Below, in pieces: positions 1 through 54,214 of a DNA stretch of 64,000 bases. The stretch covers positions 66,657 through 130,656 of the forward strand of contig JACRJP010000003.1 in NCBI GenBank assembly GCA_016215455.1, in the 5' to 3' direction. This stretch comes from Candidatus Tayloriibacteriota bacterium. Its GTDB lineage: Bacteria > Patescibacteriota > Minisyncoccia > Phycocordibacterales > PALSA-1337. Positions within the stretch are counted from its first letter, which is position 1; each line of letters opens with the position of its first letter. A program made the translations under genes and the position numbers. Below the pieces are notes generated by a model, which worked only from the letters and a program-made list of their open reading frames with translations, did not search any database and was not told the origin of the DNA.

Positions 1-353
1 CGCTCAGGAAAAGCTGTATACGGTATTGGAGTAAACTTATCTTGATTACGAACAAGAAGATCCTGAGGAATAAGAACGGCATCGGGACCTTTACCACGAG
101 CAAGAGCTTCTACAAATTGTGAAGTAAAATTCGCCTCTGAAAGCTCAACATAAGTTACTGATAGAGGATTCTGGCGACTAATATTTATATCTCTCACCAA
201 TTGATTAAAGGTAGTTTCAGATACCGTACCCCATATCGTAATTGCAGGAATTTGATTCTTTACACTATCACCTTTAAATGTTGCAAAAGCTGCAACTCCA
301 GCAATTATGAAGACAATAAAGATTGAAGTGAGAATAAGTTGAAAGCGTGTCAT
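1..353 (-). CDS. Hypothetical membrane-anchored protein, N-terminal part (gene runs off the window edge)
   Basis: Minus-strand ATG at 351-353 (its first base overlaps the TGA stop of the upstream methyltransferase). The frame stays open to position 1. Hand translation [26 protein letters not shown]... shows an N-terminal TM helix. It is absent from the ORF track because it has no stop in the window. Confidence 0.35.
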   Translation of the reverse strand, partial: MTRFQLILTSIFIVFIIAGVAAFATFKGDSVKNQIPAITIWGTVSETTFNQLVRDINISRQNPLSVTYVELSEANFTSQFVEALARGKGPDAVLIPQDLLVRNQDKFTPIPYTAFPE

Positions 354-895
354 TGTTTTTTAAATATAAGCCCGTAGTGATGATCCCCTGCTGCAAAACC
401 ACTCTCACGAACAAATCCATGTTTTTCAAAAAGCGCTTCAGCGGCCATTTCAGGAAAGAGAGCCTTTGGACCAATACTACTATGACTTCCCCAGTCAATA
501 ATAAGGACCCTACCATTTGGCTTGAGTATTCTTTTTATCTCAAGACAAAGATTATCTTTATGTTCCACTTGGAAAAGCACATTTGAAACGATCACCCGAT
601 CAACGATAGCGTCATGGAGTTGTGTGCCTCCTATTTTTTCAATATCTCCCCAAACAATCTGCACATTACTCAAATGTGCAGCAGAAGCTCCTCGAGAAAG
701 TTTTTCGAGGAGCTCACGCTGTACTTCAATTGCATACACACGACCACGAGCACCAACTTTGCGAGCCGCTGCAAATGTATAGAAACCTGAACCGGCGCCA
801 AAATCAGCGACGTGCATTCCATCTTCGAGTGAAAGGTGTGCAATGTTTTGCTCAGGGTCAGAGAACATGCAACTATTATACCCCACTATAGACAA
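350..895 (-). CDS. Class I SAM-dependent methyltransferase (UbiE/COQ5-like fold)
   Basis: 181-aa ORF with glycine-rich SAM motif VADFGAGSG, followed by acidic-loop and LKPNGRVLI motifs typical of Rossmann-fold methyltransferases. Confidence 0.7.
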
Positions 896-3405
896 ATCAG
901 AGAAGCGATGGAATCCCCATCTCGGAGTTTCATGATACGAACACCTTGTGTCTGACGACCAAGTTCTGGAATTTCTTTACTATCAACACGGATAACCTGA
1001 CTCTTCTTTGACATAGCAACAATCTCTTCTTGAGTATCAGTGATTACCTTTGCTGCAATGAGATTACCTGTTTTATCAGTAACTTTTGCAGTAAGGATAC
1101 CTGTACCACCTCGATTTTGAGTTTTATATTCTTCGAGAAGTGTCTTCTTTCCATATCCATTAGCACTCATGACGAAGAGCGCTGGGTTTTTGAATTCTTT
1201 ATTCACTACATCGGCACTAATAACAGAATCCCCCTTACTGAGTTTAATAACACGGACTCCGGCAGCACCACGACCCATTTCACGAACATCAGACTCTTTA
1301 AATCGAATCGATTGACCTTCTGTTGTTGCAATGAGAACTTCGTCTCCCTTAGCAACAAATGATGTCGACATGAGTTCATCACCATCATCGAGAGTGATCG
1401 CAATAAGACCTGAACGTCGTACATCATGGAAACTCTTTGCAGCAACCTTCTTTCCAGTACCACCCTTTGTAACCATCATGATAGAGACGTCTTTTTGCTT
1501 AGTAGCCTTTGGCATCGGAAGGATTGATGTTACTTTTTCTCCCTCAGCAAGAGAAATGAAGTTTACGATCGCCTTTCCACGTGTTGCACGCTTACCTTCT
1601 GGGATATCGTACATCTTGATCTGGTATGCCTTACCTTTATCACTAAAGAATAAGAGATCACTGTGTGTTGTGGTTGTAATTAGGTGAGTGATGAAGTCTT
1701 CTTCCTTTGTATCGAGATCGACAACTCCTACACCACCACGCTTCTGCTTCTTATATTCATCAGGGTTGGTACGCTTGATATAGCCTCCTTTTGTGAGAAC
1801 AAGTACTGTTTCTTCATCCGCGATGAGATCTTCTTCTGAGAAGTCCTTGAGACCGTGTTTAATGAGCTTCGTACGTCGTTCATCACCGTAACGAGCCTTA
1901 ATATCAACGAGTTCTGTTTTAATAATTGAAACAACACGCTTATGACTCGCCAAAATATCTTTGAGATCAGCAATGAGATCTTGAGTTTCCTTGAGTTCAG
2001 TTTCAATTCTCTTTCGTTCCAAACCAGCAAGCTTCTGCAAACGCATTTCAAGAATAGCTGTCGCCTGGAGTTCAGAGAATTTAAACTGCTTCATCAAGTT
2101 ACGATGAGCTTCTGGTGCATCCTTCGAACCTCGAATCAATGTAATAATCTTATCGATATAATCGAGAGCTTTCTTCAAACCAAGAAGGATATGTTCACGA
2201 GCAAGAGCCTTGTCGAGATCAAATTTTGTACGACGACGAATAACATCAATACGGTGAGCAATGAATTCTTCAAGAATCGATTTAAGACCAAGTGTTAAAG
2301 GTACACCGTTAACAAGAGCAACGATGTTCACATGGAATGTGTCCTCGAGTTGTGTGTGCTTATAGATATAGTTAAGAACCTTCTCTGCATGAGCACCCTG
2401 CTTAAGGTCAATCACTACACGAATCTCTTTGTCAGACTCGTCACGCATCGCTTTGATACCTTCAATTTGTTTATCACGTACGAGATCAGCAATACGAATC
2501 ATGAGTTCGGCCTTGTTGACGCGGTATGGAATAGAAGTAATGACAATCTGGTAAGTACCCTTTTTGTCTTCAACAATTTCAGCTTCTCCACGTACCACAA
2601 TACCTCCACGACCCGTCGCATATATATGATGGATATCCTTCTCTCCATACATAACTGCTCCTGTTGGAAAGTCTGGACCCTTGATGTACTGAAGAAGATC
2701 ATCTGTCGTCGCATCTTTGTCTTCGAGAAGATGCACCGTCGCATCAACAACTTCCCCGAGATTGTGTGGAGGAATGTTTGTTGCCATACCCACAGCAATA
2801 CCCAATGTACCGTTCAAAAGGAGGTTAGGAACAGCTGTTGGAAGTACTGTTGGCTCTTTACGAGTACCTTCATAGTTTGGTCGAAAATCAACAGTTTCCT
2901 TTTCAATATCACGGAGCATTTCTTGAGCAATTCGTGACATCTTTGCTTCGGTATATCGATCGGCAGCAGCGTTGTCTCCGTCAATTGAACCAAAGTTTCC
3001 TTGGCCAATCACAAGTGGATATCTCATACGGAAATCTTGCGCCATGTTCACCATGGATTCATACACAGCAACAGTGCCGTGAGGGTGATAGTTACCGGTC
3101 ACGTCTCCAACAATCTTTGCAGACTTACGCGTCTTAGCTCCAGCAGTGAGACCGAGCTCTTGCATTGTATAGAGAATACGGCGATGTACTGGCTTCAATC
3201 CATCTCGTACATCAGGAAGTGCACGTGCAGTAATAACCGACATGGCATAGTCGAGATATGACTCACGCATTTCAGTTGTAATACTTCGAGAAATAATTCC
3301 TCGTTCAGGAACAATCTCAGCAGGCACATTTGATCGTTGTGCTTTGTTGTTTTCGTTATTCTCTGGAGTCTTGCCCGATTTCTTGTCTGAATTTTCTTTT
3401 GCCAT
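886..3405 (-). CDS. gyrA: DNA gyrase subunit A
   Basis: 839-aa ORF with the GyrA N-terminal signature ([20 protein letters not shown], active-site Tyr region) and a C-terminal beta-pinwheel repeat region. Confidence 0.95.
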
Positions 3406-3775: not shown

Positions 3776-4420
3776 CTACTCTTTCGCAGACTCGAGAACT
3801 ACCACATCAGCTTCTTTACCTTCCAAATCCTTCTTCTTAAGAGTGAGCTTTGCCTGAGGTTCAGGATTCTCACCCGCTTCCTTAAGAAAGACTTTGAGAG
3901 CATCTTTTATTCCAATATCTCCATAGTGCATTGGGATAATAATCTTTGGTTCAAGGGAAACTGCAAGCTTGTATGCCTTTGCTGGCTCAAGAACACCTTC
4001 ACCACCAATTGGTACAAATAGAATATCAATATCATCAAGAGCTTCGATGGTCTCCGCTTTGAGCTCATTAGCATTATGAGCACCCAAGAAACAAAGATTC
4101 ATATTTTCGAGCGATACAGTATATATAGCGTTCACTAATTCTTTACCACCAAAACCATACGCTGTTGTTGAAGGAAGACCTTTGATAAAAACTCCCCCCA
4201 CTTCGTACTCACCAGGACCAGCAACAACAAAAGGCTGCTTATCACCGTGTGCAACTTGGTCTGAACCATTAAAATCAGGATGATTCGCTGAAATGAGAGC
4301 AATATCAGCGCCAAACCGAGAAGGTTTTAAATCTGAATCCTTAGAAATAGGATTAAACGCAAGCGTCACATCACCGAATTGCACCTTGAAAAATTCCCCT
4401 CCGAGATATGTGATAATCAT
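3776..4420 (-). CDS. Metallo-beta-lactamase-fold metal-dependent hydrolase
   Basis: Start refined to MIITYLGG (ATG at 4418-4420). Resembles UPF0173/MBL-fold hydrolases (HxDH-like region NHPDFNG..., C-terminal IIPMHYG). Confidence 0.6.
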   Translation of the reverse strand: MIITYLGGEFFKVQFGDVTLAFNPISKDSDLKPSRFGADIALISANHPDFNGSDQVAHGDKQPFVVAGPGEYEVGGVFIKGLPSTTAYGFGGKELVNAIYTVSLENMNLCFLGAHNANELKAETIEALDDIDILFVPIGGEGVLEPAKAYKLAVSLEPKIIIPMHYGDIGIKDALKVFLKEAGENPEPQAKLTLKKKDLEGKEADVVVLESAKE

Positions 4421-6509: not shown

Positions 6510-6540
6510 TCTGACAGAAAGAACTAGAAATAGTTTAAAC

Positions 6541-6567
6541 AAAAAGCGACACATGTGTCGCTTTTTG
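6541..6567. terminator. Bidirectional rho-independent terminator hairpin
   Basis: aaaaaGCGACACAtgTGTGTCGCttttt: 8-bp GC stem flanked by A-run and T-run, between convergent rpsA (+) and the coiled-coil gene (-). Confidence 0.6.
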
Positions 6568-6590
6568 TTATGAGCCTTGTATGAGGTTTA

Positions 6591-6917
6591 TTAAGCAATT
6601 TTTTCTTCAAGTTTATCTACTCGTTTTGAAAGAGTTTTGTGATCAACGTACGACACCTTTGTTTCCATCAAATACTCAAGTTTTTTGTCGACGGTATTAA
6701 AACGTCGGTCCATTCGGACTTCCAATTCATCAAATCTTTTATCAATTTGATTGAACTTCTCGTCTATTTCATCAAACTTTTTGTGGACGATCTTAAATTC
6801 ATCACGTACTTCTTTGAAGCCTGCACCAACTATCAATGCAAAGTCATCTATTTCCTCTTTAACAACTCCTTTGATCAACTGAATATCTGCACTATTTAAT
6901 GTTGGTTGTGGATTCAT
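6591..6917 (-). CDS. Hypothetical coiled-coil protein, paralog A (second copy at 25070-25411)
   Basis: Start refined to MNPQPTLNSADIQLIKG (ATG at 6915-6917). Heptad-rich, charged, ~108 aa. N- and C-terminal motifs are shared with the ORF at 25070-25411. Confidence 0.5.
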   Translation of the reverse strand: MNPQPTLNSADIQLIKGVVKEEIDDFALIVGAGFKEVRDEFKIVHKKFDEIDEKFNQIDKRFDELEVRMDRRFNTVDKKLEYLMETKVSYVDHKTLSKRVDKLEEKIA

Positions 6918-7044
6918 ACTTTTTCTTTGCTTACCATTCTCATAATTCTTCAATGTCCCAAGTGTAACTAAACTTAAAAAATATTGCAGCAAAATTATGA
7001 AGTTTTGATAAAGTTTTTATGGAAAAATCACCTCTGCAACATAC

Positions 7045-7794
7045 CTAGAGAGGTTTGCCAAGAAATACTTTTTCGAGAATACCGTCAGCTATGATCTTTT
7101 TGGGATCGCCTTGAGCCACCACCTTCCCTTTATCAAGAACATACGCACGATGAGTGATCTCGAGAAGTGATGTGAGATTATGTTCCACCACTACAATAGC
7201 GGTTTTTCGACGTTCGTTAATCTCTTTAATTTTTGCAAACACTTCCTTTACAATCTTAGGGGCGAGACCAAGAGATGGTTCATCAAGAAGTAGGATTTTT
7301 GGATCGGTCATGAGACCTCGAGCAATAGCAAGCATTTGTTGCTGACCTCCTGAGAGAGTACCTGATTTTGCTTTGAGTTTACCGCGAAGCGCTGGGAAAA
7401 GTTCAAGAACATTTTCAATACGCTCTTTGCGTTCTCCTGCTGAGATTGCCCAACCACCGATCTCAAGATTTTCTGCAACGGTAAGATGTCGAAATACACG
7501 ACGACCTTGAGGAACAAAAGAGATACCTCGATGCACCACTTCGTGAGAAACGGGAGTAAATGACTGTCCTTCCCATACCACCTTTCCTAATTCGATGGGA
7601 GCGAGACCGAATATTGCCTTGAGAATCGTTGATTTACCCGCTCCGTTTGGACCCATGAGTGCAACCACCTCCCCCTCATCAACAGCGACTGTAGCGCCAT
7701 TAAGCGCCTTTACACCACCATAGTGAACATGGATGTCATTAAGTTGAAGGAGAAGTTCTTTGGGTATAGTTGTCATGACGAGACCATTATACAC
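7045..7794 (-). CDS. livF: Branched-chain amino acid ABC transporter ATP-binding protein LivF-like
   Basis: Walker A GPNGAGKST, ABC signature LSGGQQQMLAIARGLM, Walker B LLLDEPSLGLAP. 249 aa, LivF-sized. Confidence 0.85.
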   Translation of the reverse strand: MYNGLVMTTIPKELLLQLNDIHVHYGGVKALNGATVAVDEGEVVALMGPNGAGKSTILKAIFGLAPIELGKVVWEGQSFTPVSHEVVHRGISFVPQGRRVFRHLTVAENLEIGGWAISAGERKERIENVLELFPALRGKLKAKSGTLSGGQQQMLAIARGLMTDPKILLLDEPSLGLAPKIVKEVFAKIKEINERRKTAIVVVEHNLTSLLEITHRAYVLDKGKVVAQGDPKKIIADGILEKVFLGKPL

Positions 7795-7838
7795 CTTTCT
7801 TACCTTAGATTAAATAAAAATCCTACTTACGTGACGAG

Positions 7839-8132
7839 CTATGCACGGCGCAAAGCAAGGAACACGAGCAGAACAAATCCCGCAAGAGTAGATCCCAAAC
7901 AAACCAAAGCCTTTTGCAGACCCCAATCTTGCCAAACGTAATACCCCAAGGTCGTCCAGAATCCAATGAGTCCGGCCAGGATGTGGCCAAGAAGAAGGAT
8001 CCACGGACCGACCATGAACACCCCAGCGAGGGTGGTGGTCACGAGAATACCGAGAGCCAACTGGGCCGTCGATTTCTGTGTGGGTTGTGAAGCGACAAAT
8101 GCCACTGAAGATGAAGATAGAGTAGCATGCAC
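7839..8132 (-). CDS. Small hydrophobic membrane protein (GC-elevated ORF inside the liv operon)
   Basis: 97-aa ORF with ~3 TM helices. Local GC (~53%) is well above the neighbours. The alternative 116-aa overlapping frame looks like junk. Confidence 0.4.
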   Translation of the reverse strand: MHATLSSSSVAFVASQPTQKSTAQLALGILVTTTLAGVFMVGPWILLLGHILAGLIGFWTTLGYYVWQDWGLQKALVCLGSTLAGFVLLVFLALRRA

Positions 8133-8224
8133 GGGATGTGTGGTTGGAAATGAATACCATTAAACTGCTTCTGTTGCAATTTATACCACCATACTAATAA
8201 TCCGTCAAATACACATTATGTGTA

Positions 8225-9229
8225 TTACTTCACTACAACAGGACTACCTCTTTCTATCTTCTTGAGTACTAATTCGCGCACTTTTGCACCCGTAGTATCA
8301 AAACCATCTTTGTTAATGTATTCTTTTACACAAACATACGTATCTCCACAACTTTTGAATGCCTTCGATAGGAGCTCTGCAGACTGAAGTGAGAGTCCTG
8401 CAACAGCACCTTGACCATCAGCAATATTTCCAGGGAAAGAATAGTACACACCTTCGACAAGTTCACGTACAGCTGGTAACTCAACCGCATACTGAGAAAA
8501 GATCGGGGCTTTAATACCAAGTTGTGTAAGTCGAGCTACACCCTGACCAAAGAAGAATGCAATGTCAGTTGAAAATATAGCATCGTAGTCCCCTTTTCGA
8601 ATCTTAACCAATTCTGAGGAAACATCAGTTGTATTATCTGGATAGCTAATTTCATGAACAATTGTACCCTTATAGTTTGCTTTAAAACTATCATAATGAG
8701 TCTTTGAAAAAGCATTTTGATAACTAATGAGTACTACTTTTTTATATCCTCGTGCATACATTTGCTCAGCAATAAACTTTGATTCATCTTCAAGGGCGTA
8801 CTGCATGTTATAGAAGTTTCCTCCACTCGTCTCATAGAGTGTTCGTGATGCAGCAGAAGGTACCACTACAATATTCTTTGAATTCTTGAGAAGTGGAACG
8901 ATTGCTTCCTGAGGTGAGCCACAAGCTGGACCAATCACATAGTGCACCTTATCAACTTCGGTAAGTTTTTTAAATGCTGACACGGCCTCTTTTGGTTCAC
9001 ACTTATCATCTTCAAAAATAAATTCGATATTCGGATCTTGTACTGCAAGTACACCCTTCTTCACTTCCTCACCATAGTCAGCAAGAAAACCCGAGAGAGG
9101 TGCAATGACTCCTATTTTTATTTTACCTTGTGTTGTTTGATTCGTGTTATACACCGAAAAACCCAAAACAATCAAAATAATAACAGTAAGAACAATCCGC
9201 TTTTTTGATTTGTTTTTTTGCAGTTCCAT
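8225..9229 (-). CDS. Leu/Ile/Val-binding protein family substrate-binding protein, membrane-anchored (SBP1)
   Basis: N-terminal TM anchor then the type-I periplasmic binding fold. LivK-like motif IKIGVIAPLSGFLADYGEEVKKG. Confidence 0.8.
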   Translation of the reverse strand: MELQKNKSKKRIVLTVIILIVLGFSVYNTNQTTQGKIKIGVIAPLSGFLADYGEEVKKGVLAVQDPNIEFIFEDDKCEPKEAVSAFKKLTEVDKVHYVIGPACGSPQEAIVPLLKNSKNIVVVPSAASRTLYETSGGNFYNMQYALEDESKFIAEQMYARGYKKVVLISYQNAFSKTHYDSFKANYKGTIVHEISYPDNTTDVSSELVKIRKGDYDAIFSTDIAFFFGQGVARLTQLGIKAPIFSQYAVELPAVRELVEGVYYSFPGNIADGQGAVAGLSLQSAELLSKAFKSCGDTYVCVKEYINKDGFDTTGAKVRELVLKKIERGSPVVVK

Positions 9230-9234
9230 ACCTT

Positions 9235-10371
9235 TTATTCAACATCAACAACCTTGCCACCAGAAACCTTTTTCATGACAAACTCTCGTTCAGTATCTCC
9301 ATTTTTATCGATACTAATGACTCCACTAATACCCTGATAATCTTTAACCTTATACAACTCAGACTTGATACACTCAACATCATCACCTCCACATTTTTCC
9401 ATAGCATCAAACAAAACATTGTATCCGTCATACGCAAGAGCAACATAGAGATCTTGAGATGGTGCTGCCGAGTATGTTTTTACATACTCATCAATAAGTG
9501 TTTTTAGAGCCGGTGCCTCAGTATCATACTTGTATGTCGAAGTAAGAACTCCTTCAGCATCAGGATTTGCCAAAATTTCTCGTTGAATGAAATACTCATT
9601 ACCCATGATTGGAGTTTTTACCTGAAGAGCAACTTTTTGCTTTAGGGCTGCTTGAGATGTTGCGACAGAGTTTGTAATAAACAATATTACATCAGGCTTA
9701 GCTTGAGTAAGTTTTAAAATCTGGCTTCGGAGATCTGTTTCATTAGGTGCAAAACCTTCGGTCGCCACTACTGTATATCCAGGTGTACTTGGAAATTTTT
9801 GAACAAAAGCATCCTTAATACCTGTTGGATACTCTGCTGATTCATAGAGAATAGCAGCCTTTTTATAGCCTAGTTTAACAGCTGTCTTTATCATCGCATC
9901 AGCAGTTACCACACCGGATGCTGAGGTACGAAATACATAGTCACCCGCTGTAGTAAGTTTTGGAGTAGTTGAAACAGGGGTAAATAGAATTGCCTTAGCT
10001 TTTTCAGCAAGTGGAGCAGCTGAAAGTGTTGATCCACTACACACACCAGAGATAAGTACTTTTACTTTATCAACATTTAAAAGCTTTGTTGCTGCAGCAA
10101 CTGCTTTTTTAGGATCACAACTATCATCTTCATAAATTACTTCAACTTTTTTACCATTAATTGTGTGATTCTTTGCGTATGCAAGTTTAAATCCATTACC
10201 AATATCAGCACCAGTTGATGCGGCGACAGGACCACTGAAAGGACCAAAATATCCTATTTTAATCGTGTCAGATGAAGACTTATTTGAAAAATAAGTTACA
10301 AAAATCACAACGAGAATCACCACAATAACCCCCCAGAAAACACCCTTCTTGTTTGTTTGTTGCTCAGGCAT
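9235..10371 (-). CDS. LivK/LivJ-family substrate-binding protein, membrane-anchored (SBP2)
   Basis: TM anchor, IKIGYFGPFSGPVAASTG..., conserved D...C...K and DKVKVLIG motifs of the branched-chain amino acid binding family. Confidence 0.8.
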   Translation of the reverse strand: MPEQQTNKKGVFWGVIVVILVVIFVTYFSNKSSSDTIKIGYFGPFSGPVAASTGADIGNGFKLAYAKNHTINGKKVEVIYEDDSCDPKKAVAAATKLLNVDKVKVLISGVCSGSTLSAAPLAEKAKAILFTPVSTTPKLTTAGDYVFRTSASGVVTADAMIKTAVKLGYKKAAILYESAEYPTGIKDAFVQKFPSTPGYTVVATEGFAPNETDLRSQILKLTQAKPDVILFITNSVATSQAALKQKVALQVKTPIMGNEYFIQREILANPDAEGVLTSTYKYDTEAPALKTLIDEYVKTYSAAPSQDLYVALAYDGYNVLFDAMEKCGGDDVECIKSELYKVKDYQGISGVISIDKNGDTEREFVMKKVSGGKVVDVE

Positions 10372-10445
10372 GGTATTTTAATAGTAAATAACCGCTTAAT
10401 TATACACCTGCTACAGAAAGTGCAATAGAATGTCGAGAGCTGTAA

Positions 10446-14666: not shown

Positions 14667-15419
14667 CTATTCCCCCAAATAAGCTTCTATCACATCTTTA
14701 CGAGCAAGCACTTCAAGAGGTTTTCCGTCAGCAAGAAGTTTACCAGCATCGAGAACATAGAGATGATCGGAGAGTTCACGGATAATATCCATATTGTGTT
14801 CAACAAGCACTACTGCCTTTCCCTTATCGCGTAATTCTTTCATAACAGAGATAACTGTCTTTACCATCTCTGGAAAAAGTCCTGCAAAAGGTTCATCAAA
14901 GAAAATGAGCTCAATTTCTCCTGGAGCACCGTGGAGCATTCCAAGTACACGAGCAATTTCAAGAAGCTTACGCTGACCATATGAAAGATTCTTTGCTAAT
15001 TCATTTCTTTTCTCCCAAAGACCAACTCGCTTGAGAACTTCTTCGGCACGTTCAAGATGGTACGTTCCGTGTTTTTCAAAAAGAGCAGAGACAATATTGC
15101 GCTCCGTAAGCACCACGAGAACATTGTCGAGTACTGGCATTTGTTCAAAGAGTTTTACATCTTGAAATGTTCGCGTCATGCCATAGAGTGGAACTTGATG
15201 TGGTACAACTTTTGTAAGATGTGTTGTGTCAGCAATGATAACGGCACCACCATCAACAGGAATCATACCTGTGAGAGTATTGATAAGAGTCGACTTGCCT
15301 GAGCCATTAGGACCGACAATACTCGTGATTTTACCGGCTTCAAATGTCACCGATAGATGATCGACAGCATGAACACCATCAAATTTCTTCTCTAGATTGT
15401 GAGTACGGAGGTAAGGCAT
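14667..15419 (-). CDS. livG: Branched-chain amino acid ABC transporter ATP-binding protein LivG-like
   Basis: Walker A GPNGSGKST, signature LSYGQRKLLEIARVL, Walker B IFFDEPFAGL. 250 aa. Confidence 0.85.
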   Translation of the reverse strand: MPYLRTHNLEKKFDGVHAVDHLSVTFEAGKITSIVGPNGSGKSTLINTLTGMIPVDGGAVIIADTTHLTKVVPHQVPLYGMTRTFQDVKLFEQMPVLDNVLVVLTERNIVSALFEKHGTYHLERAEEVLKRVGLWEKRNELAKNLSYGQRKLLEIARVLGMLHGAPGEIELIFFDEPFAGLFPEMVKTVISVMKELRDKGKAVVLVEHNMDIIRELSDHLYVLDAGKLLADGKPLEVLARKDVIEAYLGE

Positions 15420-23306: not shown

Positions 23307-24173
23307 TTAAAGCTTATATTCCCCCACCAAACCTTGCGGCCGATACAACATGAGAAGAATCAAAATGACACCGTATGACACCTGGCGCATTTGAGCAGCG
23401 ATATCTGATGGGAAACCAACGAAACGGAGAATTTCTGGAAGAAGAATGAGAATGACGGCACCCAACACTGCCCCTTTATTATTCGCCAAACCTCCCATGA
23501 TGATGATAGCGAGAAGAAAGATTGATTCGTTCAGAGTAAATGTTGAAGGATCAATGAAGGTGATGTAACTTGCAAAGAGTGACCCTGCAATTGAAGCGAG
23601 CATTGCACCGATAACAAAGATTGCGAGTTTATAGAACAGAGTATTGTAACCAAATACTCGAATCGCATCTTCATCTTCACGAATAGCTTTAAGAACGCGA
23701 CCGAATGAAGATTTCACAATATACTGTGATACTCCATATACAAGAAGAAGTGCAAGTGCCGACAAAAGAAGGAACCAAATATTTTCTGAGAACGTAAAAC
23801 CAAAAAGTGAGGGTCGTGGAATGCCAGGAATACCAAGAGGGCCTCGTGTCAGTGACTGCCAATTCAAAAAGATACTGTATACGATAATGTTGAAACCGAA
23901 TGATCCGAGTGCGTAATAGTCATCTTTGAATTTCGACAAAACAAAACCAATGAGCAAACTTACCACACCTGAAATAATCATTCCAAGAATAACTGATACA
24001 AAGAAATTCATTCCTGTTGTCGTGAGAAGAATTGCTGTTGCATATGCTCCCATTCCATAGAACGCAGCCTGAGTCACTGACAACAACCCTGTCACACCCA
24101 CAATAAGATTGAGCGATAGGCCCAAGATGCCGTAGATACAGATCAGTATGGCGATGTGGATGAGATATTCCAT
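23307..24173 (-). CDS. livM: Branched-chain amino acid ABC transporter permease LivM-like
   Basis: 288-aa polytopic membrane protein of the branched-chain amino acid permease fold. Adjacent to livH. Confidence 0.8.
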   Translation of the reverse strand: MEYLIHIAILICIYGILGLSLNLIVGVTGLLSVTQAAFYGMGAYATAILLTTTGMNFFVSVILGMIISGVVSLLIGFVLSKFKDDYYALGSFGFNIIVYSIFLNWQSLTRGPLGIPGIPRPSLFGFTFSENIWFLLLSALALLLVYGVSQYIVKSSFGRVLKAIREDEDAIRVFGYNTLFYKLAIFVIGAMLASIAGSLFASYITFIDPSTFTLNESIFLLAIIIMGGLANNKGAVLGAVILILLPEILRFVGFPSDIAAQMRQVSYGVILILLMLYRPQGLVGEYKL

Positions 24174-24174
24174 A

Positions 24175-25041
24175 TTATTTCTTTAATATTCCCTGCGGCC
24201 GAACAAGAAGGAATATGATGAGTACACCGAATGCAATAGCATCTTTCCATTCTCCTGAAATTTTCCAAATACCGAAGTTCTCAACAAAACCAAGAAGGAA
24301 TGCACCAAGAACTCCACCATATATATTACCAATACCACCAATGATAGAGGCGATAACTCCCTTTAAAAGAAGTGAAAGCCCCATCGTTGGTTCAATTCCT
24401 GTATCAAATCCTACCAATATACCTGCAAGTCCCGCGATTGCTGAACCGATAAAGAACACCTTACCGATAATTGATCGGGTATTGATCCCTACAATCTTTG
24501 AAACTTCCTCATCATCTCCTACCGCCTTCACCGCCTTACCAAACATCGTGTACTTGAGAGTAAGTGCCATAGCGAACATAAGCACGAGACCAGTGATGAG
24601 AATAATAAGTTGGACCTGCGTAATGACTCCACCAGCTATTTCAAATACTCGTTCATCTCCTGCACTTCGAGAAAGAGTTTGAAACTGACTTGTAAAAAGG
24701 ATTGCGAGCACGGACTGTAGTGCAGTAAAAGCACCGAGAGCAGCTACGAGTAGCACCATACTTGAGGACTTTCTTTCACGAAGTGGTGCATAGATAGAAC
24801 GATAGATAAAGAAACCAATGAGTCCTGCTATAACCATACCAAGCGGAATAGCGATCCAGAGACTAAGACCAAGTGTTTTATAAAAATAGAAGACTGCATA
24901 GCCACCCACTGCTGCAAGTGCGCCGTATCCAAGATCAAAGAATTTTGCAGTACCGTAGATGAGATTAAAACCAAGTGCCACCATCGTATAAATCGCTCCT
25001 GCAATAATACTATTGACGATAAGTTGTGGGACAATGTCCAT
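24175..25041 (-). CDS. livH: Branched-chain amino acid ABC transporter permease LivH-like
   Basis: 288-aa polytopic permease. Gene abuts livM with a 1-nt gap (stop at 24175, livM start at 24173). Conserved permease loop region. Confidence 0.8.
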   Translation of the reverse strand: MDIVPQLIVNSIIAGAIYTMVALGFNLIYGTAKFFDLGYGALAAVGGYAVFYFYKTLGLSLWIAIPLGMVIAGLIGFFIYRSIYAPLRERKSSSMVLLVAALGAFTALQSVLAILFTSQFQTLSRSAGDERVFEIAGGVITQVQLIILITGLVLMFAMALTLKYTMFGKAVKAVGDDEEVSKIVGINTRSIIGKVFFIGSAIAGLAGILVGFDTGIEPTMGLSLLLKGVIASIIGGIGNIYGGVLGAFLLGFVENFGIWKISGEWKDAIAFGVLIIFLLVRPQGILKK

Positions 25042-25069: not shown

Positions 25070-25411
25070 TTAGGAAAGTTTATGTTCGAGTTTACGCACC
25101 CTCTTTTCTAAAGCGCGATGATCTTCATATTTTACTCGTGTAATAGACAAATCGTCGATCCTTCGTTCAAGGCCATCAAAACGATAAATTGTATATTCTT
25201 TAAATTCAACAAATTCTTTATAGAAATTGTCGATTCTACCATTCGTATCTTCAAATCCTCGTGCAACCATCAAAGCAAACTCTTCAAAACGAGCATCGAG
25301 TTTAGTATCGATAAGAACATCAATTTTCTTTTCGAATCTAATTTCAAAATCATCGAAAAGACCCTTGATAAGGGTGATGTCTGCTGAATTGAGTGTTGGC
25401 TGAATATTCAT
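25070..25411 (-). CDS. Hypothetical coiled-coil protein, paralog B (first copy at 6591-6917)
   Basis: Start refined to MNIQPTLNSADITLIKG (ATG at 25409-25411). C-terminal V.YEDHRALEKRVRKLEHK mirrors V.YVDHKTLSKRVDKLEEK of paralog A. Lies 29 nt upstream of livH. Confidence 0.5.
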   Translation of the reverse strand: MNIQPTLNSADITLIKGLFDDFEIRFEKKIDVLIDTKLDARFEEFALMVARGFEDTNGRIDNFYKEFVEFKEYTIYRFDGLERRIDDLSITRVKYEDHRALEKRVRKLEHKLS

Positions 25412-25508
25412 ACTTTCTATTGTGCTGAGTATAAAATACTTCCCTACAAAAGACCATAAAATTCTGTTCAAAAAATCTCAAAAACTTTATCAGAATTTCA
25501 TACAACAA

Positions 25509-25541
25509 AAAAGACCCTGTTATTGAGGGTCTTTTTTGTTG
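25509..25541. terminator. Bidirectional hairpin terminator
   Basis: aaaaaAGACCCTgttattgAGGGTCTttttt, separating SBP10 from the coiled-coil/livHM operon. Confidence 0.6.
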
Positions 25542-25553: not shown

Positions 25554-26669
25554 TTATTTTAAATCAACAAGACTACCATTAACAATTTGTCGAACTCGAT
25601 AAGCTGGATTCTTTACATCACCATATTGATCAAACTGAATATGCCCTGAAACCCCTTGAAAATCACTCGCTCGTACAGCGTCTGAGAGTTTATCAGGATC
25701 ACTCACACCAACCTGTTTAATCGCAGCAAAAACTGCCTGAGCTGCATCATATGCTTGAGGTGCACATGTTGGAACTTGATCTCCTCCAGTCTTAGCAAGT
25801 AATTTTTTAGCGAAATCAGGAGTTGGATTTGCAACAGATTCAGTAAATAGGATATCTATTGCTTTAGGAAGGTTTGCGAGGAATTTTGTGTCTCCAAATG
25901 TTTCTGAAGCAAACAATTTTGCTGTTATTCCAAGATCTTTGATCTGTTTAACAACGACAGTTGCACCTTCTGGATAAAGAGCGAAGTAAATATAGTCAGG
26001 TTTTGTATTCTTAATCTTAGTTAACTGTGTTTTATAATCTCGAACATCTGCAGTAACACCCTCTTCTGCTACCACCGTACCACCAAGTTCCTTAAATCGA
26101 TTAATGAAGACCTCCTTAAGTCCAGACCCATAATCACTTATATGGTAGATTAGAGCTACCTTACGTGCACCTAGATCATTATAAAGGTATTCAGCCGCGT
26201 ATCTTCCTTGAAGAGCATCTGACGGATACGTTCGGAAAAAGAATTTACCTGAATTACTCAATGGAGGGGCTGACGAACAGTATGAAACAACAATCTTCTT
26301 TGTCTCCATTGCTGATTTTACAAAGGCTGAGGTCTCACCTGAACACAAACCACCAATAACTCCACTCACCTTATCGATATTGAATAATTTTTGTGCTGCA
26401 TTAGTTGCTGGCAAAGGAGAACATTTTCCATCCTCATAGATAACCTCGACTTTTTGACCATTGAGACCGCCCGCAGCATTTACCTCATCGGCAGCGACCT
26501 CTACTGCTGCTCGAGAAGCAAGACCTAGAGATGACGCATCCCCAGTTAGAGGACCGACAAACCCAATCTTAATCGGACTCGTTTCTTTCTCTGTACGTGT
26601 TCCAAAAGCGAGCACGAGTATCACTACAAGAACGATACTACCTACCACCCATTTGCCGAATTTAGACAT
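25554..26669 (-). CDS. LivK/LivJ-family substrate-binding protein, membrane-anchored (SBP10)
   Basis: TM anchor. IKIGFVGPLTGDASSLG, EVNAAGGLNGQKVEVIYEDGKC. Confidence 0.85.
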   Translation of the reverse strand: MSKFGKWVVGSIVLVVILVLAFGTRTEKETSPIKIGFVGPLTGDASSLGLASRAAVEVAADEVNAAGGLNGQKVEVIYEDGKCSPLPATNAAQKLFNIDKVSGVIGGLCSGETSAFVKSAMETKKIVVSYCSSAPPLSNSGKFFFRTYPSDALQGRYAAEYLYNDLGARKVALIYHISDYGSGLKEVFINRFKELGGTVVAEEGVTADVRDYKTQLTKIKNTKPDYIYFALYPEGATVVVKQIKDLGITAKLFASETFGDTKFLANLPKAIDILFTESVANPTPDFAKKLLAKTGGDQVPTCAPQAYDAAQAVFAAIKQVGVSDPDKLSDAVRASDFQGVSGHIQFDQYGDVKNPAYRVRQIVNGSLVDLK

Positions 26670-26709
26670 AATAATATCCTTATTTGTAATAAGGATATTA
26701 TATACCTCT

Positions 26710-27810
26710 CTATTGTATTGTCACTGACTTACCATCTTGAATTATTCTCAGCACCGCCTTCGACACCACCAGTCCATCAGCATCAATCTTGAGTCCATTT
26801 CCCAAAGCTCCATTATAGTTATTAATTCTAAGGAGAGCTTGAGTAATGTCTGAAGTATTTGGTAACGACTTCTTTTCAATAGATTCTGTTGCTTCGACTA
26901 TGATGCCTAAAATATCATATCCATTTGGGGTTGCTATCGAAGGATTCTTTTGAAACTTGTCACTATACATTTTTGTAAATCCTGAAGTCGGATCAGCAGC
27001 ATTCACGTACCACAAATTCTCAAACATTCCAGGATTATCAGATAACTCAAACGATTCAATCGACGTCAAAGGAATTTTTACCCCCGCTTCACGAATCTGT
27101 TTTGTCAGTACTTCAAGTTCTGGAGAAAACATCATGAGGACAGTATAGTCCGCACCCGAATTCTTTAACTGACTTACCTGAGTTCTAAAATCTTTTGTTC
27201 CGAACGACGTGACACTCTCGTACACAATCTCAATATCAGTACCTGATATTTGTTTCTTGAGTTCCTTAATCATTTCAGTAATACCAGAAATCTGCTGACC
27301 AAAAACTGCAATCTTCTTGATTTGACGTTTTTCTGCTTCCTTCACAAAAAGACCGATCTCTTCAACTGGAGGAGTCCAATTAATGAAATTGTAATCTCCT
27401 TTTGCAATATTCGGATCAGAGGCAATACCAAAATGAATAATTTTATTTTTCTCAGCAAGTGGATTAACCGCAGATCCTGCCGCAGAAGCAAAAGTCACAA
27501 CAGCCTGTACTTTGTCATAGTCCACAAGTTTTTGAAAAGCTGAAACTGTTCGTGCAGGAACAAATCCATCATCTTCAAAAACTGCTTCATATGTATACTT
27601 TGTATTCTTCTTTTGAGCTTCCTCGACAGCAAGAAGAACTGCATTTTTTACACCTTCTCCCAAGAAAGCAACATTACCTGATAATGGGAGAATATATCCG
27701 ATTTTAATAACTGGCTTCTCTGGTGTATCTACTGATTTTTCTTTATATATCACACTACCTACAACCACGATTACGATAATACTAACAAGGGTAATAATTT
27801 TATATTTCAT
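26710..27810 (-). CDS. LivK/LivJ-family substrate-binding protein, membrane-anchored (SBP11)
   Basis: TM anchor. IKIGYILPLSGNVAFLGEG. Periplasmic binding fold. Confidence 0.8.
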   Translation of the reverse strand: MKYKIITLVSIIVIVVVGSVIYKEKSVDTPEKPVIKIGYILPLSGNVAFLGEGVKNAVLLAVEEAQKKNTKYTYEAVFEDDGFVPARTVSAFQKLVDYDKVQAVVTFASAAGSAVNPLAEKNKIIHFGIASDPNIAKGDYNFINWTPPVEEIGLFVKEAEKRQIKKIAVFGQQISGITEMIKELKKQISGTDIEIVYESVTSFGTKDFRTQVSQLKNSGADYTVLMMFSPELEVLTKQIREAGVKIPLTSIESFELSDNPGMFENLWYVNAADPTSGFTKMYSDKFQKNPSIATPNGYDILGIIVEATESIEKKSLPNTSDITQALLRINNYNGALGNGLKIDADGLVVSKAVLRIIQDGKSVTIQ

Positions 27811-27964
27811 ATATTTATACTTACCCTAAAATTATAGGACAATTATTAATTATACATGTCAAATATATCTATACACACATCATTATACGGCTCTATATAT
27901 AGATATAATACATATTCTGTATATTTTGTTCGTCATAAGTAACAAAAAATGCTACGATACGCAT

Positions 27965-28768
27965 ATGATCTCCCATGAAGATTTAGTCCACAAAATCAAT
28001 AAAACGGGACTTACCGACAAAGAATCTTTTGTCTATAGCTATCTCATTGAAACAGGAGGTGGGTACCCCTCAAAAATATCTGAAGTAACAAAATTAAACC
28101 GAAGTACGGTATATAAGATTCTTACTTCCCTTGCTGTTAAAGGATTGGTAACTGAAATCGAAAAAAGAAAGAAGCTATTCTTTCAACCAGAATCTCCCGA
28201 AAAACTTCTTCGCTTTGCAGAAATGAAGAAACAACGTGCGTCCGAAGATCTTGAGTACGCTAAAAAAGTATTTCCTGAACTCGAAGCTCTCTTTTCTCTT
28301 TCTCCAGGTAAACCTGTTGTTAGATTCTTTCAAGACAAAAGTGGAATCATGAGTATTTTTGAGGATCATATAAAAACCACTAAGGCGTATGAAATGGTGG
28401 GCTTTGCAAACATAGGAGGACTCGAAGATATATTTCCTAAAGACTTTTTTAGAAAATATGTAGCAACAAAAGAAAAATTAAAAATTACTACTCGAGGCAT
28501 CGTACAGGATACAACACAGGATCGCACCTTTAACGATCGAATGTATACAACTGTGCAAGCTGCATATAAGTTACAACTACGATATGTACCAAGTAAATAC
28601 ATTCCCCTACAAGGAGAACTTATTTGCTACGCTGAAAATAAAGTTTCAATTGTTAACAAAACTGAATCTGGCTTTGTTGGTATTATTATCGAAGACAAAC
28701 CTATTCACGAAATGGTTCGCAAAATATTTGAGCTCGCATGGATCGGAGCAGAAAAGTTTCAAAAGTAA
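27965..28768 (+). CDS. TrmB-family winged-helix transcriptional regulator (copy 5)
   Basis: Start refined to MISHEDLV. HTH GLTDKESFVYSYLIETGGGYPSKISEVTKLNRSTVYKILTSLAVKGLV. Divergent from the SBP11-SBP10 pair. Confidence 0.7.
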   Translation: MISHEDLVHKINKTGLTDKESFVYSYLIETGGGYPSKISEVTKLNRSTVYKILTSLAVKGLVTEIEKRKKLFFQPESPEKLLRFAEMKKQRASEDLEYAKKVFPELEALFSLSPGKPVVRFFQDKSGIMSIFEDHIKTTKAYEMVGFANIGGLEDIFPKDFFRKYVATKEKLKITTRGIVQDTTQDRTFNDRMYTTVQAAYKLQLRYVPSKYIPLQGELICYAENKVSIVNKTESGFVGIIIEDKPIHEMVRKIFELAWIGAEKFQK

Positions 28769-28776: not shown

Positions 28777-29400
28777 TTACCCTGCGTTGTATACACTCAT
28801 CGCCTTCTCACGACCTTCAAATACGATAGTTTCAATAGCTTCTACTGCGCGTTTAATTACTTTTTTGAGTTCTGCTTCCTCAACAGACTTAAATGGACCA
28901 AGAATAAACTTCTCTACCTCTTTATCACCATGAGGAACTTTTGTTTTTCCTGATGCTGTAGTTGGACTCACCCCAACTCGAATACGGACAAAGCCTTCAG
29001 TCTTTGCCGCTTTAATAACTGACTCTACACCATTATGACCTCCTGAACTTCGATTAAATGAAACTTTGAGTGAACCAAGAGGAATATGAAAATCATCATA
29101 GATAACAATCAACTTCTCTGCTTTCTTTGGACTTACCTTTCCCATAGTCGTTACAAGTGGTCCAATAGCCTTCCCTGAGTTGTTCATGAACGTTTCAGGC
29201 ATCATGAGAAGCAAAGATTCTTGTTGTTTTCCTTTTTTAAGATCAACTTTTGTTGTAAGAGCCTGAACTTTTTTTGTAGTAGCAAAATCTTCTGCTCCGT
29301 GAGCCTTCGCAAAAGCCTCAAGAACCATTCTTCCGACATTATGTCGTGTATTTTTATATTCTTCTCCTGGATTCCCGAGTCCTGCGATGATGTATGACAT
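28777..29400 (-). CDS. pth: Peptidyl-tRNA hydrolase
   Basis: Start refined to MSYIIAGLGNPGEEYKNTRHNVG (canonical Pth N-terminal motif). ~207 aa. Confidence 0.9.
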   Translation of the reverse strand: MSYIIAGLGNPGEEYKNTRHNVGRMVLEAFAKAHGAEDFATTKKVQALTTKVDLKKGKQQESLLLMMPETFMNNSGKAIGPLVTTMGKVSPKKAEKLIVIYDDFHIPLGSLKVSFNRSSGGHNGVESVIKAAKTEGFVRIRVGVSPTTASGKTKVPHGDKEVEKFILGPFKSVEEAELKKVIKRAVEAIETIVFEGREKAMSVYNAG

Positions 29401-29476
29401 GTACAAATAATACACAAGCAGCACGAAACGTACAACTGTCTTGTGTCAAAGGCCTTCGACGTATTACAATTGTGCC

Positions 29477-40226: not shown

Positions 40227-40298
40227 TGACCCTACAGGGAATCGAACCCTGGTTTAGAGCTTGAAAAGCTCTCGTCCTAGCCGTTAGACGATAGGGCC
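40227..40298 (-). tRNA. tRNA-Glu (anticodon TTC)
   Basis: Hand-folded cloverleaf from the reverse complement GGCCCTATCGTCTAACGGCTAGGACGAGAGCTTTTCAAGCTCT...GGTTCGATTCCCTGTAGGGTCA. Anticodon loop TTTTCAA. No encoded CCA. Confidence 0.8.
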
Positions 40299-40808: not shown

Positions 40809-40898
40809 GGAGAGATGGCTGAGTGGTTGAAAGCACCGCTTTCGAAAAGCGGCAGAGGCGAAAGTTTCTCGGGAGTTCGAATCTCCCTCTCTCCGCCA
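40809..40898 (+). tRNA. tRNA-Ser (anticodon CGA), class II with long variable arm, CCA encoded
   Basis: GGAGAGATGGCTGAGTGGTTGAAAGCACCGCTTTCGAAAAGCGG...GAGTTCGAATCTCCCTCTCTCCGCCA. Near-identical in architecture to canonical tRNA-Ser. Confidence 0.85.
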
Positions 40899-44658: not shown

Positions 44659-45348
44659 ATGCAATACAATATACCCACCAAAAACTCAGCTCTAAAATTA
44701 CGTAAAAAAGGAATGTCTCTTAAAGAAATTAAAGATACTCTTAATATTCCAAAATCTACTCTAAGTGGCTGGTTTAAAAATATAATATTAACCAAAAGAC
44801 AATCATGTAGACTACATATCAAAAAATATAACTCATTAAAATATGCTCGTTCAAAAGCCCTCATCATTAATCAACAAAAGAAACAGACAGAAAAAGATAT
44901 CTCACAAAAAGAGATTGATCATCTACTAATGAATATGAATTGCAATGAATATTCATCGCTTTTAACCAATTTATCAATGCTGTACTTGGGAGAAGGGTTT
45001 AAAAAGACAGGTGGGACCGGCATGGGAAATACAAACCCATTAATACTAAAGTTTTTTATCAAATCTATGGAGCAACTATTTTCCCTAGATAGAAAAAGAT
45101 TTCGATATCGACTTCACTTACGTGCTGATCAAAATGAGGATAAACTTCTTAAATTTTGGACCGAACAACTCTGTGTATCAAGAGAATTGTTTATGAAAAG
45201 TGCCTTCGATAAACGCACTGTCAATATACCTACATATTATGATTATAAAGGAGTATGCGTTGTTAATTGCGGAAATATTGCTATACAAAGAAAATTAATG
45301 TATCTTAGTGAGCAGTATTGCCATCGGGTGATTAGCTCAGTTGGCTAG
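44659..45348 (+). CDS. HTH-domain protein with possible LAGLIDADG-like nuclease motif, in an AT-rich island
   Basis: N-terminal resolvase/transposase-type HTH (LRKKGMSLKEIKDTLNIPKSTLSGWFKN). Mid-protein LSMLYLGEGF resembles a degenerate LAGLIDADG. ~31% GC versus ~40% background. The reported ORF's stop lies inside tRNA-Val, so the 3' end may be shorter. Confidence 0.35.
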   Translation: MQYNIPTKNSALKLRKKGMSLKEIKDTLNIPKSTLSGWFKNIILTKRQSCRLHIKKYNSLKYARSKALIINQQKKQTEKDISQKEIDHLLMNMNCNEYSSLLTNLSMLYLGEGFKKTGGTGMGNTNPLILKFFIKSMEQLFSLDRKRFRYRLHLRADQNEDKLLKFWTEQLCVSRELFMKSAFDKRTVNIPTYYDYKGVCVVNCGNIAIQRKLMYLSEQYCHRVISSVG

Positions 45349-45401
45349 AGCGCAGACTTGACGTGTCTGAGGTCACAGGTTCGAGCCCTGTATCACCCAC
45401 C
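45326..45401 (+). tRNA. tRNA-Val (anticodon GAC)
   Basis: GGGTGATTAGCTCAGTTGGCTAGAGCGCAGACTTGACGTGTCTGAGGTCACAGGTTCGAGCCCTGTATCACCCACC. Anticodon loop TTGACGT. Confidence 0.85.
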
Positions 45402-54138: not shown

Positions 54139-54214
54139 TGGTGCCGAGAACCAGATTTGAACTGGTGACCTATCCCTCTTCAGGGGAGCGCTCTACCAAC
54201 TGAGCTATCTCGGC
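54139..54214 (-). tRNA. tRNA-Phe (anticodon GAA), CCA encoded
   Basis: Reverse complement GCCGAGATAGCTCAGTTGGTAGAGCGCTCCCCTGAAGAGGGATAGGTCACCAGTTCAAATCTGGTTCTCGGCACCA. Anticodon loop CTGAAGA. Confidence 0.8.

Follow-up and report, generated by a model that had tools for sequence, protein, structure and literature searches.

Two paralogous coiled-coil genes beside a Liv transporter block belong to a Patescibacteria-wide family of small proteins

In the DNA analysed here (a stretch of 64 kb, called the window throughout), a block of genes for a Liv-type ABC transporter is accompanied by two genes for small charged coiled-coil proteins, which we named ccA and ccB. One follows livF and the other precedes livH, which raises the question of whether their products belong to the transporter. 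An earlier note, made from the sequence alone, had proposed that they could be a novel adaptor or regulatory subunit of the Liv system. The canonical LivJ/K-LivHMGF transporter, of the HAAT family, has five kinds of component (a binding protein, two permeases and two ATPases) and, to our knowledge, no coiled-coil subunit. Were the proposal true, it would add a sixth subunit type to a textbook ABC importer, but the evidence described below points away from it.

The two genes and their place in the Liv block

The exact ccA protein is present in NCBI as hypothetical protein HZA80_01840 of Candidatus Taylorbacteria. In the program-made list of open reading frames, ccA and ccB had each been stretched to an upstream TTG, giving 133 aa apiece. 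Alignment of four close relatives placed the onset of protein conservation exactly at the ATG and not at the upstream TTG, so that the proteins are taken here as 108 and 113 aa (Table 1). BLASTP aligned them with 35% identity (E = 6e-18), and tblastn against the whole window recovered the same similarity (E = 2e-14) in two copies only. A profile of the family to which they belong (see below), run on the six-frame translation of the window, likewise found ccA and ccB and no third copy.

The two proteins agree at 15 of 17 N-terminal residues, and at 8 of these 15 the codons differ, as with Ser (AGT/TCA) and Leu (TTA/CTC). When the last 37 residues were compared position for position, 16 were identical, half of them (8 of 16) again in different codons, and blastn found no meaningful similarity between the two genes at the DNA level. 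Because the same residues are kept in different codons and the DNA has lost its similarity, ccA and ccB can be read as old, diverged paralogs maintained by protein-level selection. This bears out the earlier note, which had seen two charged coiled-coil frames with common termini and diverged DNA.

Table 1. Features of the Liv region discussed in the text, with positions counted from the first letter of the window.
Feature	Position	Strand	Remarks
ccA, 108-aa coiled-coil protein	6591..6917	-	ATG 6917, stop 6591-6593; NCBI hypothetical protein HZA80_01840
ccB, 113-aa paralog of ccA	25070..25411	-	ATG 25411, stop 25070-25072; NCBI hypothetical protein HZA80_01935
22-nt motif AAAACTTTATCAAAACTTCATA	6996..7017	-	Same orientation as ccA; lies 79-100 nt before its ATG
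22-nt motif, second copy AAAACTTTATCAGAATTTCATA	25481..25502	+	Inverted relative to ccB; lies 70-91 nt before its ATG
ccA codons K87-V88-S89	6651..6659	-	Non-helical break at hexad insertion, candidate beta-layer (model and register from sequence)
ccB codons R92-V93-K94	25130..25138	-	Equivalent break, inside the family motif RIDDL-xxx-RVK-YED-H..L..RV..LE
livF-type ABC ATPase gene	7045..7794	-	Upstream of ccA
livH and livM permease genes	24175-25041 and 23307-24173 (together 23307..25041)	-	Directly downstream of ccB
livG	14667-15419		Mid-block
Two substrate-binding-protein genes	25554-26669 and 26710-27810	-	Outside ccB
TrmB-type regulator gene	27926-28768	opposite to pth and ccB genes	Outside ccB
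pth	28777-29424	-	
Strong hairpin bordered by A and T runs	6538..6569	-	Between ccA and the convergent S1 gene; -17.9 kcal/mol, z -5.3
Strong terminator-like hairpin	25504..25540	-	Between the binding-protein gene at 25554-26669 and ccB; -19.4 kcal/mol, z -6.4

Read along the minus strand from its outer end, the region consists of pth, an opposite-strand TrmB-type regulator, two binding-protein genes, a terminator hairpin, ccB, livH, livM and a methyltransferase gene, followed by nine LivJ/K-like binding-protein genes, among which four TrmB-type regulators and livG are scattered, then a 97-aa open reading frame, livF, ccA and a second terminator. An S1-domain gene lies beyond ccA and is convergent with it. 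In total the region holds 11 binding-protein paralogs and 5 TrmB-type paralogs. The pair had been described as flanking the transporter block; this holds for ccA after livF and for ccB before livH-livM, but two binding-protein genes and a TrmB-type regulator lie outside ccB.

The start of ccA is 127 nt downstream of livF, and ccB ends 31 nt upstream of livH. Both terminator hairpins were found by direct folding, having been missed by a consensus promoter/terminator scanner, and the one beyond ccA is likely a bidirectional terminator that ends a livF-ccA transcript. When the gap between livF and ccA was folded it gave no stable hairpin (z 0.6). This result, together with the short ccB-livH spacing, leads us to infer two transcripts, livF-ccA and ccB-livH-livM, so that each cc gene is probably co-transcribed with Liv core genes. 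A strong terminator lies only upstream of ccB, which would make ccB the first gene of its transcript. Because the GTG listed as the livF start overlaps a GGTGTATAAT box (7786-7795), the ATG at 7776 is probably the true start.

A 22-nt motif occurs upstream of each cc gene. There are two matches in the window where 0.01 would be expected by chance, and the motif is also kept upstream of the ccA ortholog on a contig of a close relative (L001, described below). Being common to both cc genes, it could mark co-regulation of ccA and ccB. It is absent from all family loci other than L001. We considered it as the signal of a wider regulon, and a metagenome scan gave nine loci, none with cc, Liv or flank homologs, which were therefore taken as chance matches.

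Other features of the region were also considered and set aside. The GC-richer gap at 7800-8225 gave no Rfam match to a structured RNA at gathering thresholds and contains the 97-aa frame, which is hydrophobic. The GC content of the Liv block (0.35-0.45) resembles that of its flanks (0.37-0.43) and thus gives no hint of a foreign island. For the cc genes themselves a phage or mobile origin was not supported, since nothing turned up in phage genomes searched by tblastn or in the IMG/VR viral contigs that were scanned.

A family of small Patescibacteria proteins

A word-indexed search with ccA returned two close relatives only. An exhaustive profile search of 1.84 billion representatives returned 1,085 proteins at E <= 1e-3, a number to be read with the caveat that composition accounts in part for profile matches between coiled coils. 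All members with an organism name come from Patescibacteria (CPR), among them a protein with a structure in the PDB (7O97). Member length, taken from 152 sequences, has a median of 118 aa and lies mostly between 80 and 140 aa. In hmmsearch the family profile (A2) matched ccB at E = 1.8e-29 and ccA at E = 9.1e-25, values that are partly circular as both proteins were in the seed; independent members matched at 1e-13 to 1e-36.

Three features recur in the family. The first is an N-terminal [LF]-A-x-M-V-x-x-G-F motif, found as LAxMxxxGF in 79 of the 152 sequences and with its Phe conserved in at least 90%. The second is a run of R-F-D-x-[VIL]-D-x-like heptads whose number varies between members, and the third is a C-terminal R-I-D-D-L-x-x-N-R-V-K-Y-E-D-H-x-x-L-x-x-R-V-x-K-L-E motif. 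The N-terminal motif reads FALIVGAGF in ccA and FALMVARGF in ccB, both of which fit the pattern [LF]-A-x-[MI]-V-x-x-G-F. At the C-terminus ccB (RIDDLSITRVKYEDHRALEKRVRKLE) matches the family motif in full, and ccA (KLEYLMETKVSYVDHKTLSKRVDKLE) keeps its spacing with a diverged first half. Within the cc proteins the middle diverges fast and both ends are conserved. The start M-N-x-Q-P-T-L-N-S-A-D-I defines a close subfamily made up of ccA, ccB, P0002, P0003 and P0005 only, and a looser form of it, L-T-x-x-D-L-x-x-I-x-G-I-V, is more widespread, a Berkelbacteria protein being one case.

No family in Pfam, NCBIfam, PHROG or PADLOC passed for the cc proteins, and the generic coiled-coil matches fell below the cut-off wherever one was set. 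Such generic Pfam families (DUF7310, DUF1664, HSBP1, XhlA and DUF16) drew weak matches from many family members, DUF7310 from 40 of 149 and DUF1664 from 33 of 149, and for ccA and ccB every match was below the curated cut-off. HSBP1 and DUF16/MPN010 are trimeric coiled coils. We take such generic matches to reflect periodicity and composition, not demonstrated homology. Haemolysin XhlA (PF10779) was weighed separately and rejected, with 16.6 bits for ccA where the cut-off is 34.7, no match for ccB and no phage relatives. Three longer profile matches were DUF3782 proteins with PD-(D/E)XK (PDDEXK_10) nuclease domains, and these are distant; neither ccA nor ccB matched DUF3782 itself (PF12644) even at E <= 10.

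The Pfam and NCBIfam scans gave no match of ccA or ccB to ABC, permease or binding-protein models, and hence no homology to LivJ/K, LivH, LivM, LivG or LivF; nor did they detect a DNA-binding domain in either protein. What ccA and ccB have in common with the LivJ/K-LivHMGF system is a neighbourhood and, probably, transcripts shared with livF and livHM, not homology to its components. The statement that they are not a known Liv component therefore stood, whereas profile searching, in returning a family of about 1,000 members and no Liv homology, went against the proposal that they are a Liv subunit. No paper on PDB 7O97 or on the cc family was found in the library searched. The family already has a crystallised member but no Pfam or NCBIfam model. 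The findings are modest and open no long-standing question; a sizeable family of small Patescibacteria coiled-coil proteins that is absent from both databases is nevertheless useful for genome annotation.

Neighbourhoods in other genomes and what they suggest

A 4.2-kb contig of a close relative (L001) is collinear with the outer flanks of the window at about 77% DNA identity (S1 fragment 95% identical, pth 82%, signal peptidase 76%). Its positions 1-3265 correspond to 31975-28787 of the window and its positions 3873-4242 to 6710-6315, with about 430 nt from pth to a single cc gene. Two relics of the Liv block were recognised there: the promoter and first ~20 codons of the binding-protein gene at 9235-10371, and the last 6 codons and stop of livF, the latter with the ccA upstream region. 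Because these gene ends are truncated, they indicate that the Liv block was deleted in the L001 lineage. Recombination between ccA and ccB was rejected as the cause, since the paralogs have no DNA similarity and the junctions lie in the binding-protein gene and livF, not in the cc genes.

The cc protein of L001 is the ortholog of ccA, with 57% identity to it by tblastn (67% over ungapped columns) against 40% to ccB. The gene is intact, and comparison with ccA gave a dN of 0.24 and a saturated dS of about 2.6 (dN/dS ~0.1), as expected of a gene under purifying selection. Its neighbours all had a lower dN (pth 0.10, signal peptidase 0.15, S1 0.02). An intact ccA ortholog beside a livF relic argues that ccA does not need an adjacent livF, and its retention would be independent of that gene, with the reservation that the view of L001 covers 4.2 kb and Liv genes may exist elsewhere in its genome.

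LivH is abundant and evolves slowly, with more than 2,300 homologs at E <= 1e-40 and at least 120 clusters at 76-88% identity, against five proteins in the close cc subfamily. We inspected four LivH-centred loci, a small sample. In L028 (LivH 88% identical) a gene for a 147-aa protein without a Pfam match lies between a binding-protein gene and livH; the protein matches the family profile at E = 2.9e-13, yet it is 25% identical to ccB. The order binding protein, cc, livH is the exact position of ccB, which is thus conserved in one related genome. L029, L030 and L031 (LivH 85-87% identical) had no cc match within 5 kb, and the gene directly upstream of livH was of TrmB type or for a binding protein. 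A cc gene is present in one of these four loci and absent from the other three; it is thus dispensable for closely related Liv systems, and it does not co-evolve with LivH. Divergence of the cc proteins was far faster than that of their neighbours, with 25% identity where LivH kept 88%.

Elsewhere the family is found in quite different operons. Seven loci (L004, L007, L008, L011, L014, L016 and L017) share the order rpe-cc-tktN, in which the cc gene lies between the genes for ribulose-phosphate 3-epimerase and the N-terminal transketolase subunit, in hosts ranging from Saccharibacteria (L004) to another Taylorbacteria genome (L007). Further arrangements were gap-cc-rpiB (L015), grpE-cc-dnaK (L013), a cc gene beside scpA and an aminoacyl-tRNA synthetase gene (L002), and cc genes among hypothetical or toxin-antitoxin genes (L003, L005). 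The rpe-cc-tktN position is strikingly conserved in many Patescibacteria genomes. Using the window genes as tblastn queries, we found no LivH, LivM or binding-protein homolog at the 12 distinct family loci outside the lineage or in L001. Around cc in the rpe-tktN and grpE-dnaK operons the genes are packed as closely as they are in the window; tight embedding is therefore typical of the family and of compact genomes, and is not evidence for a Liv link. Outside the window, an association of this family with Liv genes, which would have been expected of a transporter component, was accordingly confined, among the loci examined, to the cc-livH order of L028, and apart from that one exception the family is widespread and was not met beside Liv genes.

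We consider it most probable, at roughly 0.6, that ccA and ccB are generic members of this family, locally duplicated and carried along in Liv transcripts, with no Liv-specific role. The family would comprise small soluble coiled-coil proteins distributed across Patescibacteria, of which ccA and ccB are two diverged paralogs, its genes being embedded in, and probably co-transcribed with, whichever operon hosts them. The position beside livF and livHM would then be a legacy of local duplication, a reading suggested because the region is itself built by repeated duplication (11 binding-protein and 5 TrmB-type paralogs), and the proteins may serve as a general structural or oligomeric scaffold independent of Liv. 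Against this stands the proposal of a Liv accessory proper to a narrow Taylorbacteria clade, in which ccA and ccB, as cytoplasmic partners of the HAAT system made from the same transcripts, would bind or bridge LivF/LivG or LivHM. It draws on ccA following livF without a stable hairpin, on the gap of 31 nt between ccB and livH and the terminator found solely upstream of ccB, on both paralogs adjoining Liv core genes and not binding-protein genes, on their common 22-nt motif, and on the family member (E = 2.9e-13) in the binding-protein/livH slot of L028, where LivH is 88% identical. However, the Liv neighbours in L001 are relics beside an intact ccA ortholog under purifying selection, three loci with LivH 85-87% identical (L029, L030, L031) have no cc gene within 5 kb, and Liv genes are missing around all 12 distinct family loci elsewhere. 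The embedding is just as tight in the rpe-tktN and grpE-dnaK operons and so carries little weight in compact genomes, and 25% identity of the L028 protein to ccB against 88% for LivH is a poor fit to a co-evolving subunit. We therefore regard a Liv-specific accessory as unlikely, and the adaptor or regulatory subunit of the earlier note as mostly unsupported.

A broader version would have each family member act as a modular adaptor for the multi-subunit machine whose genes adjoin its own, be it split transketolase, GrpE/DnaK or Liv, with paralogs that specialise. It would explain why positions are conserved while sequences diverge fast, and it agrees with the quickly diverging middle and conserved ends of the proteins, with the rpe/tktN position kept in at least seven distinct loci from Saccharibacteria (L004) to Taylorbacteria (L007), and with the cc-livH position kept in two genomes. 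Nonetheless the neighbouring systems have no property in common, the ccA ortholog persists after livF loss in L001, and synteny is expected among related compact genomes without any functional link, so that we hold this explanation to be quite improbable. Its particular form in which, in this Taylorbacteria clade, ccA partners the LivF ATPase and ccB the LivHM permease would have as its traces the L028 gene order, the likely co-transcription and the common 22-nt motif, and we rate it as rather improbable. The motif also invites the idea of a regulatory module, in which the cc protein and the motif control the adjacent operon, for example as a co-regulator of the TrmB-type regulators in the block or as an autoregulated leader gene; the motif occurs exactly twice in 64 kb (0.01 expected), upstream of both cc genes and of the L001 ortholog, and five TrmB-type regulators lie in the block. 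Yet no DNA-binding domain was detected in ccA or ccB, the motif has opposite orientations at the two genes, and it is absent from other family loci and was met only at unrelated loci in the metagenome scan, which makes such a module very improbable. That the two frames are spurious or decaying, being chance frames or pseudogenes in AT-rich DNA, might be suspected from their low-complexity, charged composition and want of a known domain, but is effectively refuted by the similarity of ccA to ccB (E = 6e-18) with identical residues in different codons, the dN/dS of ~0.1 against the L001 ortholog, hundreds of homologs of which one is crystallised, and confident AlphaFold2 models.

Predicted rod structure and known coiled coils

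AlphaFold2 monomer models, made with the family alignment, had a pLDDT of 92.9 for ccA and 93.6 for ccB. That of ccA consists of a helix over residues 9-86, a break at 87-89 (K87-V88-S89) and a helix over 90-107, and that of ccB of a helix over 9-91, a break at 92-94 (R92-V93-K94) and a helix over 95-112. Each model thus has a single break of three non-helical residues, placed at a six-residue insertion, and pLDDT is above 90 in both. In the register read from the sequence, 3-4 hydrophobic spacing runs up to the Leu of R-I-D-D-L, which occupies position d. From this Leu there are nine residues, not three, to the next a-position (His), after which L, V and L stand at d, a and d. Of 59 members that fit a relaxed version of the C-terminal pattern, 46 show exactly this heptad+6 spacing, and ccA and ccB show it too.

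ccA and ccB are each predicted to form a rod that begins with a conserved N-terminal segment, T-L-x-x-x-D-I-x-L-I-K-G ... F-A-L-x-V-x-x-G-F, continues through a canonical heptad stretch of some 50-80 residues, in which a is Phe or otherwise hydrophobic and d is Ile, Leu or Val, and ends with the six-residue insertion L-xxx-[R/K]-V-[K/S]-Y-x-D-H, a three-residue helix break and a final helix of 18 residues.

In parallel trimeric coiled coils, six-residue insertions give rise to beta-layers of three residues, the register being e-f-g/c-b1-b2-b3-e-f-g (Hartmann et al., 2016; PMC4786415). The family fits this register as A-M-N / R-V-K / Y-E-D / H. The break in ccA and ccB therefore suggests, by analogy, a beta-layer in a parallel homotrimeric rod, the trimer following from the putative beta-layer; the suggestion comes from the register together with monomer models, which by their nature cannot show a layer formed between chains. 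The consensus [aliphatic]-A-T-K-[polar]-[D/E] of canonical beta-layers is not matched by ccA (K-V-S-Y-V-D) or ccB (R-V-K-Y-E-D), and a motif of the form [aliphatic]-A-T-K-x-[DE] was found in 5 of 152 members, elsewhere in the chain. These five members lend support to the beta-layer reading, as do the profile matches to a trimeric adhesin and to a crystallised homolog, both described below, and to the three DUF3782 nucleases, the family whose stalks were shown in that paper to be built in this way.

Proteins of this structural kind, stand-alone prokaryotic coiled coils with a beta-layer-type discontinuity, are already known. In alpha/beta coiled coils, units of 6 or 9 residues interrupt the heptads of parallel trimers, as in the stalks of DUF3782 nucleases such as Tcar0761 of Thermosinus (PMC4786415). 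Like these stalks, ccA and ccB are small prokaryotic coiled coils with heptad+6 spacing and, in the models, a three-residue break. They differ in having one break and not an array, in the break motif ([R/K]-V-[K/S]-Y-x-D against M-A-T-K-D-D in the stalks), and in having neither a nuclease domain nor a match to PF12644.

The best PDB sequence match of the family profile was AtaA, a trimeric autotransporter adhesin of Acinetobacter (PDB 3WPA; E = 1e-7), in which the local motif NVNELANNAVKYDD aligns with RIDDLALNRVKYEDH of the family at the transition out of the coiled coil. Trimeric autotransporter adhesins are very large, secreted and anchored in the outer membrane, whereas ccA and ccB have about 110 aa and no signal peptide, anchor or head domain was seen in their sequences; the likeness is local and may be convergent. 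When the ccB model was compared with the PDB in Foldseek nothing was returned, which is unsurprising for one long helix.

A crystallised homolog of the family is PDB 7O97, the structure of hypothetical protein UY81_C0065G0003 from a Candidatus Giovannonibacteria bacterium. It too is a small Patescibacteria protein in which a coiled coil comes after an N-terminal TLEKLVSMVAVGF motif, and its match to the family profile (E = 7e-5) spans profile positions 28-82, stopping short of the C-terminal NRVKYEDH...RVxKLE motif. The entry name calls the protein 'converted', i.e. engineered, and the entry is silent on Liv. The heptad+6 discontinuity of the family is a candidate natural beta-layer and so offers material for structural work on coiled coils.

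Conserved context of the coiled-coil family

Members of the cc family, the Patescibacteria small coiled-coil proteins that include ccA and ccB, were found between the ribulose-phosphate 3-epimerase gene (rpe) and tktN, which encodes the N-terminal half of a split transketolase, at at least seven distinct Patescibacteria loci. This rpe-cc-tktN order spans Saccharibacteria to Taylorbacteria, with gaps of just 2–25 nt, and dominates among the family's conserved contexts. Among the loci of other family members, the cc gene lies directly upstream of tktN in L004, L007, L008–L012, L014 and L016–L018.

A cc gene also occupies a conserved slot upstream of livH, both in the window and in L028, a locus from a related genome. 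The L028 gene (2719–3162) and ccB (window 25073–25411) share 25% identity, and LivH of the same two genomes is 88% identical. The low cc identity at this slot reflects either very fast divergence or replacement at the same site by another member of the cc family.

Organization and loss of the Liv array

The Liv system in the window (7045–28768) is unusual in its organization. It contains 11 LivJ/K-like binding-protein paralogs, all under NCBIfam cut-offs, interleaved with five TrmB-type regulators on the opposite strand, whilst livF, livG and livHM are dispersed singly across the array. The same organization was seen in the related genomes represented by L028–L031.

In L001, a 4.2-kb contig of a close relative carrying the ccA ortholog, one binding-protein gene is reduced to its promoter and first ~20 codons, and livF to its last 6 codons and stop. 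As only these end fragments are kept, the Liv block that separates pth from ccA, ~22 kb in length, has been deleted in the L001 lineage.

Upstream motifs and other features of the window

ccA and ccB are each preceded, 70–100 nt upstream, by a 22-nt motif, AAAACTTTATCARAAYTTCATA, present in exactly two copies in the window (0.01 expected). Its orientations relative to the gene are opposite at ccA and ccB, and it is also kept upstream of the ccA ortholog in L001. A metagenome scan for the motif matched unrelated loci only. In one such contig, L027 (~9600–9656), it lies within a near-perfect inverted repeat (TATGAAATTTTGATAAAGT ... ACTTTATCAAAATTTCATA), a setting that is probably coincidental.

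Two binding-protein genes have a GGTGTATAAT-type extended -10 box 28 nt upstream, and the box of the gene at 9235–10371 is conserved in the L001 relic. A third box (7786–7795) coincides in part with the GTG given as the start codon of livF; livF therefore probably starts at ATG 7776, with a very short leader.

Features located in the window and in L001
Feature	Position	Strand	Remark
22-nt motif	6996–7017	-	
22-nt motif	25481–25502	+	
22-nt motif	L001 3623–3644	+	
Extended -10 box	7786–7795	-	
Extended -10 box	10399–10408	-	
Extended -10 box	26697–26706	-	
Liv relic	L001 3404–3498		matches window 10315–10408
Liv relic	L001 3576–3644		matches window 6996–7066
97-aa ORF	7839–8132	-	hydrophobic
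tRNA gene	40227–40298		Rfam
tRNA gene	40809–40895		Rfam
tRNA gene	45326–45399		Rfam
tRNA gene	54142–54214		Rfam
tRNA gene	54622–54693		Rfam
RNase P RNA, bacterial class A	63457–63824	-	Rfam, 149.7 bits

Beyond the RNase P RNA and five tRNAs, Rfam gave no match at gathering score in the window, including the gap that separates livF from a binding-protein gene, where GC content is locally higher. This gap holds a 97-aa ORF without a Pfam match. Judged from its sequence, the product looks to have about three membrane-spanning segments; the ORF may encode a small membrane protein that belongs to the transporter cluster.
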